Below, one piece after another: positions 1,467 through 64,000 of a stretch of DNA of 64,000 nucleotides. How positions within the stretch are numbered: position 1 is the first letter of the stretch; each line of letters opens with the position of its first letter. Under the pieces are notes generated by a model. The model was not told the origin of the DNA, made no database searches, and was given only the letters and a program-made list of their open reading frames with translations. The stretch lies in the NCBI GenBank assembly GCA_030390025.1, contig CM059432.1, forward strand, positions 11,718,001 through 11,782,000, in the 5' to 3' direction. Both the position numbers and the translations under genes were made by a program. Source of the stretch: Squalus acanthias (taxonomy: Eukaryota).

Positions 1467-1550
1467 AATCTGAAGAAGATGCAGGTACTGAACAAGGGTG
1501 TAAGCACTCAACCCAACATGGAGCTCGACGAACTCAATAACTTTGACTGG
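1467..1550 (+). CDS. SPIRE1: SPIRE1 exon, post-KIND linker and start of myosin-V globular-tail-binding motif (NLKKMQVLNKGVSTQPNMELDELNNFDW)
   Basis: cag| acceptor, |gtaag donor, 84 nt, phase 0-0. Resembles vertebrate SPIRE1 NLKKIQEM...LEELKNADW and joins the next exon in frame. Confidence 0.88.
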
Positions 1551-4124: not shown

Positions 4125-4289
4125 GCGTGCTTCTGGGTGCAAGTGATGAGAGATTTGCGGAATGGCGTGAAGCTGAAGAAGGTGCAAGAGAGACAATACA
4201 ACCCCCTTCCGATTGAGTACCAGCTCACTCCGTATGAAATGCTGATGGATGACATCCGATCGAGAAGGTACACCCTGCGGAAAGTCATG
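4125..4289 (+). CDS. SPIRE1: SPIRE1 exon, WH2-A and WH2-B ([55 protein letters not shown])
   Basis: tttcag| acceptor, |gtgagt donor, 165 nt. Almost identical to the recalled SPIRE1 WH2 region. Confidence 0.97.
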
Positions 4290-7332: not shown

Positions 7333-7561
7333 CTGGCGGTCGATCACTCTGGCGGCCGATCACTCTGGTGGCCGATCACTCTGGCGGTCGATCACTCTGG
7401 CGGTCGATCACTCTGGCGGCCGATCACTCTGGCGGCCGATCACTCTGGCGGCCGATCACTCTGGCGGCCGATCACTCTGGCGGTCGATCACTCTGGCGGC
7501 CGATCACTCTGGCGGCCGATCACTCTGGCGGCCGATCACTCTGGCGGTCGATCACTCTGGC
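7333..7561. repeat. 16-bp minisatellite, about 14 copies (ctggcggYcgatcact)
   Basis: Directly visible tandem array. Confidence 0.95.
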
Positions 7562-20746: not shown

Positions 20747-21266
20747 GCACAGCTTCCTTTGGGAAGAAGAGAAGGTTCGGGGCAGCCTCCTTTGGGAAGA
20801 GGAGAACGTTCCGGGCAGCTTCCTTTGGGAAGAGGAGAAGGTTCAGGGCAGCTTCCTTTGGGAAGCGGAGAAGGTTCGGGGCAGCTTCCTTTGGGAAGAG
20901 GAGAAGGTTCAGGGCAGCTTCCTTTGGGAAGTGGAGAAGGTTCGGGGCAGCTTCCTTTGGGAAGAGGAGAAGGGTCAGGGCAGCTTCCTTTGGGAAGAGG
21001 AGAAGCTTCGGGGCAGCTTCCTTTGGGAAGAGGAGAAGGTTCAGGGCAGCTTCCTTCGGGAAGAGGAGAAGGTTCAGGGCAGCTTCCTTCGGGAAGAGGA
21101 GAAGGTTCGGGGCAACTTCCTTCGGGAAGAGGAGAAGGTTCAGGGCAGCTTCCTTTGGGAAGAGGAGAAGCTTCGGGGCAGCTACCTTTGGGAAGAGGAG
21201 AAGGTTCGGGGCAGCTACCTTTGGGAAGAGGAGAAGGTTCGGGGCAGCTTCCTTTGGGAAGAGGAG
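20747..21266. repeat. 33-bp minisatellite, about 16 copies (gcagcttcctttgggaagaggagaaggttcRgg)
   Basis: Directly visible; gives an 11-aa periodicity in three open frames. Confidence 0.95.
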
Positions 21267-23532: not shown

Positions 23533-23619
23533 ATCAATGGTAGCATCCCTCCCAAACTGAAGAAAAGCGCCCACGAAATGATCCTGGACTTTATCCGTTC
23601 ACGGCCTCCGTTAAACCCT
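23533..23619 (+). CDS. SPIRE1: SPIRE1 exon, WH2-C ([29 protein letters not shown])
   Basis: cgcag| acceptor, |gtgagt donor, 87 nt, phase 0-0. Matches [29 protein letters not shown]. Confidence 0.96.
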
Positions 23620-25321: not shown

Positions 25322-25451
25322 GCATCTGCACGGAAACTGAAGCCAACTCCACCGCGCCCTCGGAGCCTTCACGAAAGAATATTGGAAGAAATCAAGTCTG
25401 AGCGGAAACTACGGCCAGTGTCTCCCGATGAGATCAGGCGCAGCAAATTTG
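25322..25451 (+). CDS. SPIRE1: SPIRE1 exon, linker 3 and WH2-D ([43 protein letters not shown])
   Basis: cacag| acceptor, |gtgagt donor, 130 nt, phase 0-1. Confidence 0.96.
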
Positions 25452-31484: not shown

Positions 31485-31776
31485 AATCCCCTTCAGAATC
31501 TTGTATGTTTCAATGAGATCACCTCTCATTCTTCTAAACTCCAGGCAGTATAGGCCCATTCTACATAATCTTTCATCATAAGACAGCCCTCTCATCCCAA
31601 GAATCAATCTAGTGAACCTTCGTTGCACCGCCTCTAAGGCAAGTAGATAAGTAGTCCAAAACTGTGCACAGGTGTGGTCTCACCAAGGTCCTGTACAATT
31701 GTAGCAAGACTTCCTTCTCTTTTCACCTATTAGTCTTTGTAAGGTGCAGGTTTACTAGCAGGTATTAAACCTGCTA

Positions 31777-32313
31777 GCAAAGAAGGGAGGGAAAAAGAGT
31801 GGCAGGGCTATAGTAATAGGGGATTCGATTGTAAGGGGAATAGATAGGAGTTTCTGTGGTCGCGACCGAGACTCCAGGATGGTAATTTGCCTCCCTGGTG
31901 CAAGGGTCAAGGATGTCTCGGCGCGGGTGCAGAACATTCTGGAGGGGGAGGGGGAACAGCCAGTTGTCGTGATACATGTTGGTACCAACGACGTAGCTAA
32001 AAAAAGGGAAGAGGTCCTACAAGTAGAATTTAGGGAGTTAGGAGCCAAGCTAAAAAGTAGGACCTCGAAGGTAGTAATCTCTGGATTACTACCAGTGCCA
32101 CGTGCTAGTAAGAGTACAGAGAACAGGATAGTTAGGCTAAATACGTGGCTTGAGCAGTGGTGTAAGAGGGAGGGTTTTAAATTTTTGAGGCATTGGGACC
32201 AGTTTTGTGGTAGGTGTGACCTATACAAAAGGGACGGTCTACACCTGTGCAAAGATGGAACTGAGGTTCTCGGGGTAAATTTTGATAAAGCAGTTCGGGA
32301 GCATTTAAACTAG
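31777..32313 (+). CDS. CR1 ORF1 3' part, SGNH/GDSL esterase-like
   Basis: Motifs IVIGDSIVRG, IHVGTND and DGLHL; ends EHLN-stop. The start is approximate because of 5' truncation. Confidence 0.88.
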   Translation, partial: AKKGGKKSGRAIVIGDSIVRGIDRSFCGRDRDSRMVICLPGARVKDVSARVQNILEGEGEQPVVVIHVGTNDVAKKREEVLQVEFRELGAKLKSRTSKVVISGLLPVPRASKSTENRIVRLNTWLEQWCKREGFKFLRHWDQFCGRCDLYKRDGLHLCKDGTEVLGVNFDKAVREHLN

Positions 32314-38183: not shown

Positions 38184-38225
38184 TAATGCGGCCACTTAGC
38201 ATGTCTTACAGTTTTGACTTGTCAG
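38184..38225 (+). CDS. SPIRE1: SPIRE1 42-nt cassette exon (VMRPLSMSYSFDLS)
   Basis: Long polypyrimidine tract with tacag|, |gtaaag donor, symmetric phase 1-1. Matches mammalian AMRPLSMSYSFDLS. Confidence 0.93.
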
Positions 38226-53729: not shown

Positions 53730-55127
53730 ATAAGAACATAAGAAATAGGAGCAGGAGTAGGCCATTCGGCCCTTCGAGCCTGCTCCGCCATTCAATGAGA
53801 TCATGGCTGATCTTCTGCCTCAACTCCATTCACCGGCCCTATCGCCATATCCCTTGATGCCCTTACTAGTCAGAAATCTATCGACTTCTGTTTTGAATGA
53901 CTGAGCCTCCACAGCCCTCTGGGGTAGAGAATTCCAAAGATTCACCACCCTCTGTGTGAAGAAATTTCTTCTCATCTCAGTCCTGAATGGCCTACCCTTT
54001 ATCTTGAGGCTGTGGCCCCTGGTTCTAGACTCCCCAGCCAAAGGAAACATTCCCCCAGCATCCACCCTATCAAGCCTTGTAATAATTTTGTATGCTTCAA
54101 TGAGATCCCCTCTCATTCTTCTGAATTCAAGAGAATACAGGCCTAGTTTACTCAATCTCTTCTCATACGACAGTCCCACCATCTCAAGAATCAATCTCGT
54201 GAACCTTCGTTGCACTCCCTCTATGGCAAGTATATCCTTCCTTAGGTAAGGAGACCAAAATTGTACATAGTACTCCAGCTGTGGTCTCACCAAGGCCCTA
54301 TATAATTGGAGTAAGACTTCTTTACTCCTGTACTCAAATCCTCTTGTAATGAAGGCCAGCATACCATTTGCCTTCCTAATGGCTTGCTGCACCTGCACAT
54401 TCACTTTCAGTGACTCATGTACAAGGACACCCAGGTCCCTTTGAGCATCTGCATTCCCCAATCTTTCACCATTTAGGAAATACTCTGCCTTTCTGTTTTT
54501 TCTACCAAAGTGGATAACTTCACATTTATCCACATTATATTCCATCTGCCATGTTCTCACCCACTCACTGAGCCTGTCGAGATCCCCTTGAAGCCTCTTC
54601 ACATCCTCTTCACAACTGATACTGCCACCTAGCTTTGTATCATCAGCAAATTTGGAAATGTTACATTTAGTCCCCTCATCCAAATCATTGATATAGATTG
54701 TGAATAGCTGGGGCCCAAGCATCGATCCTTGCGGTACCCCACTAGTAACAGCCAGCCATCCTGAAAAAGACCCGTTTATCCCTACTCTTTGTTTTCTGTC
54801 TGTTAACCAATTCTCAATGCATGCTAGTATATTACCCCCAATTCCATGTGCCCTAATTTTGTTCACCAACCTCTTGTGTGGGACCTTATCGAAGGCCTTC
54901 TGAAAATCCAGATACACCACATCTACCGGTTCCCCTTTGTCTACTCCACTAGTTACATCCCCAAAGAACTCAATAGGTTTGTCAAACAGGATTTCCCTTT
55001 CATAAATCCCTGTTGACTCTGCCCAATCTTACTATTAGTTTCTAAGTGCCCAGTTATTGCATCCTTTATAATAGATTCCAGCATTTTCCCAACTACTGAT
55101 GTGAGGCTAACAGGTCTGTAGTTCCCC
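53730..55127 (-). mobile_element. CR1 3' fragment (RT)
   Basis: 366-aa ORF with YLDFQKAFDKV and FADD plus CR1 3' UTR. Confidence 0.92.
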
Positions 55128-57715: not shown

Positions 57716-57806
57716 GAGGACAGAATTAAGATGCTGAGGAGCAGTTCCAGCGGATCAACTCTTAAGGTGGAAGACAGCTCCCCAGAGACTCCGAATGGCA
57801 AGAAAA
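57716..57806 (+). CDS. SPIRE1: SPIRE1 exon, Ser-rich linker (EDRIKMLRSSSSGSTLKVEDSSPETPNGKK)
   Basis: atcag| acceptor, |gtaagc donor, 91 nt, phase 0-1. Bridges the phases of both neighbouring exons exactly; only weak sequence similarity to mammals. Confidence 0.8.
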
Positions 57807-59978: not shown

Positions 59979-60121
59979 CTCCTCCAATGTTCCTGCCCAT
60001 CTCCTCGACTCCACAGCCTGAACGAAGGAAGCCACCTCAGAGGCGGCACTCCATCGAGAAGGAAACACCAACCAACGTGCGCCAGTTCCTTCCTCCGTCG
60101 CGACAGAGTTCCAAGTCTCTG
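59979..60121 (+). CDS. SPIRE1: SPIRE1 exon ([47 protein letters not shown])
   Basis: ctcag| acceptor, |gtaagt donor, 143 nt, phase 1-0. Near-identical to the recalled SPIRE1 sequence. Confidence 0.97.
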
Positions 60122-61784
60122 GTAAGTGCAACATGAATGAGAGTTGTGATGGGGTTTCCACAGATCCTCCGTCACTTTTGTGAAGATGTATCTAAATGTG
60201 AGCACATTTCAAAAACAGAACTTCCAGGAAAGTTCCAAGGGGAACATTTCCATTGTGTTGCATTAGTATCAAATGTTCTCTGTCCAGCTCAGTCAGTTTT
60301 TCATCAGGTGCCATCGAAGGCTACTTTGAGCAATATATAGTTTGGGGCTTGAACTCAGCACTAACATGGACCTATAGCCGTAGTCCTTCTGCAGCACAGG
60401 TCAATGGAGATTTGGAAATTACAACACAGAAGGAGGATAGTTCTTCATCTGGAGATACTTAGTTTAATCCCATTTCCCTGCCCTTTCCCATACCCCTTTT
60501 ATATTAAATATTTATGCAGCTCCCTTTTAAGTGCTATAGTCTTGGAGAAAGTTTGGAATGCTTTGTACCCCAGGGGCCAGTGGGGAGCATGCTATTGAAC
60601 TTGTCTGGTGACACAAGGGGTCGATTTTAACCCTACCCATCCGGCAGAAACCGGGTGAGTGGGCAGTTATACACCAGTAGGTTAATTACCCACTCTGAGG
60701 AAGGCAGGAGCCTGATAAATGTACGCAAGTCAGAGTCCTATTACGTCAATAGGACCTCGATGCAATTTTAACGGGGACCCGAAGACGGAAGAGGCCTTTC
60801 TGGTGAGCAACAGGAGTGTTTCTCCGGGCTCCACAAGCAAATTTACTGCCTCTCCTGTCCCGGACTCTCCACCACCAACCCCCCTCCCCCCCTCCCCTTT
60901 CCCTACCCACGAGACCTTCCCTGAACCCTCTTCCTCACACTTATTTGGATGCCAGTGGGCGGCCCAGGACTGCCCAATCTTTGCCTGCCAGCATAGGGAC
61001 ATAGGAGCAGGAGGAGGCCATTCAGCTCCTCGAGCCTGTTCCGCCATTCAATGGGATCATGGCTGATCTGTGACCTAACTTATGTCTGAAGTTACTAATG
61101 TCAGCGCACAGACCAGGGGCTTGGATAGTGCCCAGCAGAAAGCCAAGACCCGATTTTAACCCTGCCCGCCCAGCGTGAAGGGGCGGGCGGTTAGTTAATA
61201 TGGCAGTCGAGCGCTTCTCGCTGCGTTCCTGACACGTTTGCGCCATTTTTAGTCACAGGAAAGGTACTTGCTACAGTCCCCAGAAGGAAACCTTGGGTCT
61301 CCCCTCGATCGCCTGCGGACCCTCCCCCACCACCGCTTACCTCATGTTGGGGATCGTTCCCTCAGGCCCCCCCCCCCCCCGGCCTTCCTCCCCCACCCTG
61401 GCACCAACCTTCTACCACCCAAAATCCCACTCACACCCACCGGCCAGGTTAGCAGGGGGAGTCCGATCTCTGAAATGTTAATGAGGCCCTGGAGTTAGAA
61501 TTTCCTGGGCTTCCCGCCAACAGCGTCATGGGAGGTTTCCATTCCACCCTGGCACCCACCAACCACACTCTCGCCCCAATTTCACATCTTAAGCTTGCGT
61601 TGAGCTTCATTGGAACAGTGTAGGAGACCCAAAACCAAGTATGAATGGGAGGCAGAGTTAAACTGTTGAGCTCACAGTCACACTTGCAGACAGGTCCAAG
61701 GTATTCAACCACCTAATTTTCATTTGGTCTACCCAATGTAGAGGAGATACCATTTATTTCCATTGACTTAAAAGTCAATATAAG

Positions 61785-63325
61785 AACATAAGAACTAAGA
61801 GCAAGTATATCCCTCCTTAAATAAGGAAACCAAAACTGTACGCAGTACTCCAGGTGTGGTCTCACAATTGTAGCAAGACTTCCTTACTATTGTACTCCAA
61901 CCCCCTTGCAATAAAGGCCAACATGCCATTTGCCTTCCTAATTGCTTGCTGTACCTGCATGCTAACTTTCTGTGGTTCTTGTACTGGGACACCTAAATCT
62001 CTCTGAACACCAACATTTAATGGTTTCTCACCATTTAATAGTTTCTCACCATTTAAAAAATATTCTGTTTTCCTATTCTTCCTACCAAAGTGAATAACCT
62101 CACATTTCCCCACATTATACTCCATCTGCCACCTTATTGCCCACTCACTTAACCTGTCTATGTCCCTTTGCAGACTCTTTGGGGGAGAAATTCAGTATCG
62201 CCCCATTTGGGGCGCAATTATCGGCCGGGCGCAAAGATTAGCGCCTGGCGCTAATTATCGCCACCGACTGCAAACTTGACTTTTATCGCCCCTGGAGGTG
62301 ATTGGAGCGCTAAATCAGGCGCTTCACACCTGTCTTAAGGCGCAAAGGCCGAGGAGCGAGGCGCTAACTCAGAGCGCTGGCGAAGCTCATGTGATGTCAG
62401 TCAGCAATGGAACACACACACAATGGCACGGGCCAGTTCTTAAAGGGGAGGGTTGATCTTGCTTTCCATCCACATCCTGCTCATTGCTGCCTTGAATCTC
62501 GGCCCGGAGAGACCTGTACATCAAACCTTCAGGAAAGAACAATGGAGAGGCCCAGGGAAAGAGCTCAGAGTGCAGCCCCCACAATCTCTTCTAAATCGAT
62601 ACAAGGAAGGGCAAATCAAAATGAACCTGCAAAGTGCTGCTCAGTACCCAAAACTCCTTCACACAGAGTTGAATCTCTCCGGAAGTCTCTCTCTCTCTCT
62701 CTCTCTCTCAGACTGCGTGGTTCAAAGATGTCACCAACAATAAAAGGCAGGAAGCGGTCGCCTTTAAATAGCGCTCCCCCAGTCCCTTCCTGACTGCAAA
62801 ACGCTCCCCTCAACCTGTCGTTGCTAGCGGCAGGCGGTAAGGCAGGGGGCGCCACTCAATATCCACTCCGGGGCGCTACCGGGGCGTTGCGCACTCGACT
62901 GACGTCACGGTCTGCCGGCGCAGGAGATCGTGGCGGTAGTATTTAGCGCCGCCGCAAAATGTCTAGTTAATTTCTCGAGCGGCGTAAACATTGCCGCACC
63001 CGGGCGCTAGTTGCTTTGCGCCCCATTATCGCCCTCTAAAGGCGCTAACGGGAGGCGCATCCAACTGAATTTTTCCCCCTTTGTGTCCTCCTCACAGCTT
63101 ACTTTCCTACCTAGCTTTGTATCATCAGCAAACTTGGATACATTACACTCGGTCCCTTCATCTAAGTCATTAATATAGATTGTAAATAGCTGAGGCCCAA
63201 GCACTGATCCTTGTGACACCCCACTAGTTATGGCCTGCCAACCTGAAAATGACCTGTTTATCCCTACTCTCTGTTTTCTGTCTGTTAACCAATCCTCTAT
63301 CCATGCTAATACATCACCCCCAACC
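61785..63325 (-). mobile_element. CR1 fragment split by a MITE
   Basis: QGSVLGPQLF..FADD at 63007-63219 continues at 61862-62180. Confidence 0.88.
62181..63079 (-). mobile_element. MITE family A copy
   Basis: Same TIRs; TSD TTT; splits a CR1 RT fragment. Confidence 0.85.
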
Positions 63326-63843
63326 TAATCTACCCCAATATGTTTATTTATTGGTGGTGTATGTATGTTGAGGGAAGAATACTTGGTCAGCGCTGGGAGT
63401 CAAAAAGTGCCATGGGACCATTTACATTTGCCTAAACCATTAGTACAGACGTCAGCCTAAATTCTGTGCTCAAGTCCTGATGTGGGTCTTGAACCTACAA
63501 CTTGGGGCTTAGGAGCCGAGGTTGCTACCAACTGAACCAGGCTGGCACTCTGAGTAAGGTCGGGACAATCACATATAAGGGCAGTGCAAACGAGATGCAA
63601 ATTTATGATAATTTTGTAGCTGTTTTATGTGTTCTGTCTAAAAGTTTCAAACCAAACTTGTGCTTTCATAAATGCTTCAGAAACGTTGCAAAGATTGTCA
63701 CAAACTCCTGTTGCTATTGTCAATTTCGGATGCTGAAAATGTACGGCTTTGGTTAGAAACAAGAATTGCAGTTTGTTTGTTAATAGTTCCGACAGAGAAT
63801 TCCCCGTGCAAATTTCCCTTGTAACCATCTATCTGTTGTCCAG

Positions 63844-64000
63844 GTGTCCAGGCTAAGCAGTTTCTTACCTCGGATGAACCGCCAACCGTTTTTCCCAACC
63901 ATACAAACAGCCTCCATGCTCAATTCCTACCCCGTGGAAGCCGCCATATTTGGTATAATGGGGGCTGTGTATTTTCTGTGTGGCAGAGTATTTAGCAGCA
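63844..64000 (+). CDS. SPIRE1: SPIRE1 alternative ExonC / exon 13-like mitochondria-targeting exon, running off the window (VSRLSSFLPRMNRQPFFPTIQTASMLNSYPVEAAIFGIMGAVYFLCGRVFSS)
   Basis: ttgtccag| acceptor in phase 0, 52 open codons, placed directly after the ...QSSKSL exon. Aligns without gaps to my recollection of mammalian ExonC (TIQTAS, PxEAAxFG, GAxYxLC). Confidence 0.85.
   Translation, partial: MSRLSSFLPRMNRQPFFPTIQTASMLNSYPVEAAIFGIMGAVYFLCGRVFSS

Follow-up and report, generated by a model that had tools for sequence, protein, structure and literature searches.

The closest described counterpart of the exon studied here is an alternative exon of mammalian SPIRE1, whose product is known as Spire1C, SPIRE1-E13 or mitoSPIRE1. 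In the mouse this exon encodes 58 amino acids at the insertion point described below (Manor et al. 2015, PMC4574297; Straub et al. 2020, bioRxiv 10.1101/2020.06.19.161109), and in mammalian cells the encoded segment, named ExonC, is reported to be both necessary and sufficient for mitochondrial localisation (PMC4574297). Besides recruiting myosin 5 and formins, mammalian mitoSPIRE1 counteracts motility, and inclusion of the exon is high in mouse kidney (10.1101/2020.06.19.161109). The topology of the segment is disputed, a membrane-protected C-terminus being described in PMC4574297 and a hairpin with a cytosolic C-terminus in 10.1101/2020.06.19.161109. The exon was first traced from mammals to chicken, and was not found in annotated zebrafish (PMC4574297). 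The later preprint reports it in SPIRE1 of Callorhinchus milii (ghostshark) and places its origin in the jawed-vertebrate ancestor; according to the same source, tetrapods, gar and cichlid SPIRE1B have retained the exon, other teleost genes have lost or replaced it, and hagfish lacks it (10.1101/2020.06.19.161109).

Public databases also cover sharks and rays. RefSeq and UniRef isoforms named 'protein spire homolog 1-like' carry the same 58-residue insert, with 36 to 49 of 58 residues identical to the present exon (for example Hypanus sabinus XP_059832501.1, Heptranchias perlo XP_067834344.1 and Pristiophorus japonicus UniRef100_UPI00398EB743). In all, the insert is annotated in 13 shark/ray species: these three, Hemitrygon akajei, Mobula birostris, M. 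hypostoma, Pristis pectinata, Heterodontus francisci, Cetorhinus maximus, Hemiscyllium ocellatum, Stegostoma tigrinum, Scyliorhinus torazame and Leucoraja erinacea. Isoforms that skip the exon are annotated as well (P0014, P0026). These models are predictions in other species, and their names mention neither the exon nor mitochondria. The insert is also present in coelacanth, frog, turtle, crocodilian, bird and mammal models. The occurrence of the exon in cartilaginous fishes is already known, both from the 2020 preprint and from the public annotation of many sharks and rays. The novelty that the initial annotation attached to a shark copy is thereby lost, since fish orthologues are already annotated, the very finding that it had itself named as counting against novelty. 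Its account of the exon as known mainly from amniotes agrees with the range given in 2015 (mammals to chicken; PMC4574297) but is too narrow, given the coelacanth and frog models and the gar and cichlids added by the preprint. Its dating of the exon to at least the jawed-vertebrate ancestor holds, and the same conclusion is drawn in 10.1101/2020.06.19.161109. In the literature searched, we found no publication on the exon in a true shark; the database models do cover it. A search aimed at ray-finned fishes, lamprey and Callorhinchus returned only eight shark/ray models and coelacanth (9 of 21 candidates), using a word index that is insensitive and hence silent on absence. By its published description, the Callorhinchus milii exon 13 is the same exon, at the same place before the SPIRE-box and with the same dating (10.1101/2020.06.19.161109). 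C. milii is a chimaera, whereas by similarity the gene described here comes from a cartilaginous fish that is probably a shark (94% to Pristiophorus, 93% to Heptranchias); the passages of the preprint report no shark transcript data, and transcript contigs are given here.

The window, that is the whole stretch of DNA analysed, comprises 64,000 nucleotides (C8:11718001-11782000) of the 3.71-Gb genome of Squalus acanthias. Flanking DNA was added on both sides (80 kb upstream and 79 kb downstream, the overlap with the window being verified), and positions above 64000 are window coordinates carried on along the contig. The SPIRE1 features are as follows.

1467..1550, + strand: exon 5 (tblastn and splice sites)
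4125..4289, + strand: exon 6, start of the WH2 cluster (exon mapping; Pfam WH2 match below the cut-off, E 0.043)
23533..23619, + strand: exon 7 (exon mapping)
25322..25451, + strand: exon 8 (exon mapping)
38184..38225, + strand: alternative exon 9 (exon B of Manor et al.), 42 nt, 14 codons, frame-preserving and intact (exon mapping; mouse exon B sequence in PMC4574297)
41421..41584, + strand: exon 10 (exon mapping and splice sites)
57716..57806, + strand: exon 11 (exon mapping and splice sites)
59979..60121, + strand: exon 12 (...RQSSKSL), phase-0 end, donor GTAAGT (44 of 48 residues as in human; present in inclusion and skipping contigs)
63829..63843, + strand: pyrimidine-rich tract and AG acceptor of exon 13 (sequence; junction used in X3 contig 16)
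63844..64000, + strand: alternative exon 13 (ExonC), the part in the window, codons 1-52 and base 1 of codon 53 (splice sites, homology, transcript contigs)
L002 5683-5820, + strand, beyond the window (start at extended position 68683): SPIRE-box exon 14 (exon mapping)

We take exons 7 and 8 to belong to the WH2 cluster, and the end of exon 10 to be the region of the myosin-5-binding motif. The initial annotation had proposed that an exon follows the ...QSSKSL exon in the correct phase, with a phase-0 donor about six codons beyond the window and a SPIRE-box exon (EEFCYPVECL) further downstream, and the extended sequence bears this out. Exon 12 ends at 60121 in phase 0, and an AG acceptor at 63842-63843, behind the pyrimidine-rich tract, precedes exon 13. 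Translation of the + strand from 63844 to 63999 gives the same 52 residues as the peptide reported earlier. Past the window end the frame runs on for exactly six further codons (RWKRPK), to the phase-0 donor AAG/GTTTGC after 64017, so that exon 13 is 174 nt long (58 codons, phase 0/0, AG..GT) and ends 17 bases outside the window (64001-64017; L002 1001-1017). The full peptide of 58 residues is VSRLSSFLPRMNRQPFFPTIQTASMLNSYPVEAAIFGIMGAVYFLCGRVFSSRWKRPK. Introns of 3,722 nt (5') and 4,665 nt (3') flank the exon, and exon 14 (EEFCYPVECL...) begins in phase 0. The exon is placed between exon 12 (...SSKSL) and exon 14, inside an intact SPIRE1 gene; it adds 58 codons in frame after the myosin-5-binding region and ahead of the SPIRE-box, with the length and insertion point that the initial annotation had given for the mammalian exon.

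As the initial annotation had stated, the alignment to Spire1C ExonC is gapless: against human SPIRE1 isoform X2, 33 of 58 residues are identical and 44 of 58 similar (E 2e-21), and against the mouse ExonC of PMC4574297 31 of 58 are identical, counted by eye. The human insert differs from that mouse sequence at 3 of 58 positions by eye (the paper gives 2), and the human insert compared here is accordingly ExonC. Scored without gaps under BLOSUM62, the shark and human exons reach 177, compared with a mean of -50 ± 16 and a maximum of 43 over 100,000 shuffles (z 14). With a profile built from 39 distinct bony-vertebrate (non-chondrichthyan) exon sequences, the exon 13 frame scores E 4e-26, the next best among the 7,291 open frames of the 223-kb locus scoring E 0.65. 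A chance open frame is ruled out by the shuffles and the profile search. The exon is less conserved against human than its neighbours (33/58 as against 44/48 and 45/46), and in its N-terminal 18 residues 6 are identical to human. Over 53 distinct exon sequences eight columns are invariant (V1, P9, S24, E32, A33, G37, L45 and W54), five of which (E32, A33, G37, L45 and W54) lie in or next to the predicted helix. A protein search with the exon alone found four proteins among 12 candidates, all of them shark/ray SPIRE1 models, and a search with the exon plus its flanks found 1,418 proteins among 1,748 candidates, the best 120 of which were compared. A 58-residue insert stands at the exon 13 site in 138 of 140 database proteins, with two of the 140 lacking it, a ratio that is biased because the searches rank exon-containing forms first. 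The Pfam scan gave no family for exon 13, and among solved structures there was no relative, the single match having E 0.39. From length, phase, position and homology, the shark exon is the orthologue of SPIRE1 ExonC/exon 13. It has a modest use: being a natural sequence that has diverged to 57% identity with human, it narrows the residues likely to be important for targeting, and the invariant residues should help in working out the placement of the anchor in the membrane.

The function of mitoSPIRE1 has been shown in mammalian cells, and the shark exon is known here from sequence and contigs. On this basis we consider it probable, at roughly 0.88, that the 58 residues, like their mammalian counterparts, anchor the longer shark SPIRE1 isoform in the outer membrane of mitochondria. 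By analogy with the mammalian work, inclusion of exon 13 would shift SPIRE1 from RAB-marked vesicles to mitochondria. There its cytosolic KIND domain, WH2 repeats and myosin-5-binding motif would recruit formins and myosin 5, and the recruited machinery would build actin on the organelle, promoting its division and restraining its movement.

The basic and amphipathic start and the following hydrophobic helix that the initial annotation had described are recovered: the peptide opens with 14 residues of basic, amphipathic character (moment up to 0.73), and a helix is predicted over residues 28-53, with a core at 33-47. From an alignment of 30 sequences, AlphaFold2 predicts a disordered start and two helices, 20-26 and 28-53, with a one-residue break between them. 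The pLDDT is 86-90 over residues 31-50 but middling for the peptide as a whole (mean 67.6, pTM 0.35), in a model that contains no membrane. Residues 33-47 are uncharged and hydrophobic, and are followed by R48, R53, K55, R56 and K58. Outer-mitochondrial-membrane anchors usually consist of a moderately hydrophobic helix flanked by basic residues. The predicted shark helix covers the segment 26-46, called a transmembrane helix by Manor et al. (PMC4574297). The model neither shows nor excludes a hairpin, the mouse prediction being helix-loop-helix.

The alternative that survives best accepts the exon as orthologous and spliced, but supposes that in the shark it targets another membrane (the ER or vesicles) or spans it differently, mitochondrial specificity having come later. 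The best 19-residue Kyte-Doolittle window reaches 1.66 in the shark, compared with 0.89 in human, and the shark has G47, lacking the acidic residue of the 48 of 53 sequences that have E at this position. More hydrophobic anchors tend to favour the ER. Against the mitochondrial reading itself, only 6 of the 18 N-terminal residues match human, so that a targeting signal located there could have drifted, and the loss of the exon from many teleost SPIRE1 genes indicates that it is dispensable in some lineages (10.1101/2020.06.19.161109). Against the alternative, the exon keeps its length, the position of its helix, the face of small residues and a basic C-terminal flank from shark to human, and a single origin with a single function is simpler, which is also how the preprint reads the exon (10.1101/2020.06.19.161109). 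We therefore regard a different membrane target as distinctly improbable, and still prefer anchoring at mitochondria. The related proposition that the shark anchor truly spans the membrane, or is directed to some other organelle, we likewise consider unlikely. If true, it would offer a natural variant helping to settle the hairpin-versus-transmembrane dispute over mitoSPIRE1 topology, or would mean that mitochondrial specificity was refined after the divergence of sharks.

Of 13 sequencing runs screened for the exon, none is recorded as RNA, six hold at least half of 14 sampled exon words, and contigs of four were mapped on a 9.2-kb stretch (L010) spanning exons 12-14. The type of each run is either a guess at RNA or not given, and the organism labels are coded; the de Bruijn contigs show presence, rather than level, tissue or strand, and junctions were read from the positions of contig pieces. 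Contig 16 of run X3 (depth 46) joins exons 12, 13 and 14, matching L010 179-320, 4043-4215 and 8881-9020 at contiguous record positions 1664-2118, with 0 differences within exon 13. This is the inclusion junction 60121 to 63844 for which the initial annotation had proposed looking. The skipping junction that it had also named appears in contig 9 of run X12 (depth 32), where exon 12 is joined directly to exon 14 (L010 179-320 and 8882-9020 at record positions 533-813). At the contig joins, small offsets (one or two bases) fit letters shared by the splice sites. X3 and X12, which supply the full inclusion and skipping contigs, come from the same study (P2). Run X1, from another study and with another organism label, holds a 1,893-nt contig with exon 13 (0 differences, depth 15), whose join to exon 12 is suggested by equal depth (15.3). 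Despite the guessed run types, intron-free joins at GT..AG sites point to spliced RNA. A retrocopy as the source of the intron-free contigs was rejected, the genome matches, whose counts are lower bounds, all lying in intron-containing genes (at least one for the exon 13 query and at least two for a SPIRE-box query). Exon 13 is thus a cassette exon, both included and skipped, in runs guessed to be RNA. The alternative splicing that directs SPIRE1 to mitochondria would accordingly date to the jawed-vertebrate ancestor, as was already concluded in 2020 from ghostshark (10.1101/2020.06.19.161109), with confirmation in a shark by contigs of both splice forms.

These contigs largely refute the notion that the exon is a relic, present in the DNA but rarely spliced in or non-functional in this shark. 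It is true that the donor AAG/GTTTGC is far from consensus, that an out-of-frame AG at 63852 and GT at 64001 lie nearby, and that X12, one of the four mapped runs, shows the skipped form only. However, the frame is intact, the length is kept in 13 shark/ray species, the donors after exons 14 and 15 of the same gene also start with GTT, and exon 13 is present in the inclusion contig of X3 (depth 46) and the exon-bearing contig of X1 (depth 15). A relic is hence very improbable, and we favour a functional cassette exon. The out-of-frame donor at 64001 and acceptor at 63852 were rejected as alternatives, the listed contigs using 63844 and 64017 instead. Were the donor to be skipped, the frame would continue for 30 codons past exon 13 to a stop (L002 1018-1107), and such read-through would give a protein ending soon after the hydrophobic helix, in a tail-anchor-like arrangement. 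The listed contigs give no support for donor read-through, the exon 13 pieces of X1 and X3 ending at the donor.

The host gene can be followed well beyond the window. Using tblastn with three shark/ray SPIRE1 models, 16 coding exons (3-18) were mapped over a span that begins 56 kb ahead of the window and ends 31 kb beyond it; in the 80 kb upstream of the window, tblastn did not recover exons 1-2. AG is present at all 16 acceptors and GT at all 15 internal donors. Whichever of the two alternative exons are included, the joined frame stays open as far as one terminal stop (695, 637, 681 and 623 residues in the four combinations), the product of exons 3-18 having 695 residues with exon 13 and 637 without it. 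In a comparison with 17 proteins, the joined protein has 94.0% identity with its Pristiophorus counterpart and 93% with that of Heptranchias; the other sharks and rays tested lie at 87-92%, coelacanth at 75.8%, and human SPIRE1 at 73.5% (669 aligned residues). Two of seven pieces scanned gave Pfam matches, KIND on exon 3 (E 1e-23) and the WH2 match below the cut-off. CEP76 exons lie at C8:11,472,077-11,474,873 (+), on the same strand and ∼190 kb upstream of SPIRE1 exon 3. CEP76 adjoins SPIRE1 in mammals, and a canid database model (P0115), a fusion of the SPIRE1 and CEP76 families, is consistent with this adjacency. Exons 3 and 4 are separate in this gene and fused in a paralogue on C6; fusion of exons 3 and 4 is a hallmark of SPIRE2 (10.1101/591974). 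Taking together the KIND domain, the identity to human, the separate exons 3 and 4, both alternative exons and CEP76 upstream, the host gene is SPIRE1, not SPIRE2 or SPIRE3. That it is instead SPIRE3 or another paralogue, the exon then being older than the SPIRE1/SPIRE3 split, is scarcely credible, for although the database models of close relatives bear the name 'spire homolog 1-like', and Callorhinchus has a SPIRE3 likewise with separate exons 3 and 4 (10.1101/591974), the 73.5% identity to human SPIRE1, CEP76 upstream on the same strand, and the presence of both alternative exons, which are ascribed to SPIRE1 homologues in 10.1101/591974, all speak against it.

The second match of the SPIRE-box query is the C6 gene (G000:C6:28122825-28170271), in which exons 3 and 4 stand in one open frame, and which is a SPIRE2-type paralogue. 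A profile search found no ExonC in this paralogue over 80 kb, the best of 2,645 frames having E 0.096. Querying the genome with the SPIRE-box gave no third SPIRE gene (two matches, a lower bound), from which loss of the SPIRE3 possessed by Callorhinchus (10.1101/591974) is not implied.

The introns of SPIRE1 contain several repeats. Two retrotransposon pieces were recognised in the window, one at 53823-55028 (- strand) with a 402-residue open frame containing a reverse-transcriptase domain (E 3e-21), and the other at 31759-32310 (+ strand) with a 184-residue frame containing a GDSL/SGNH esterase domain (E 3e-12), presumably as in ORF1 of some LINE families. There are also two intronic minisatellites, at 7333-7561 (16-bp unit repeated 14.3 times, 96% matches) and at 20750-21266 (33-bp unit repeated 15.7 times, 93% matches); the 33-bp array yields long open frames on both strands, which are probably meaningless.
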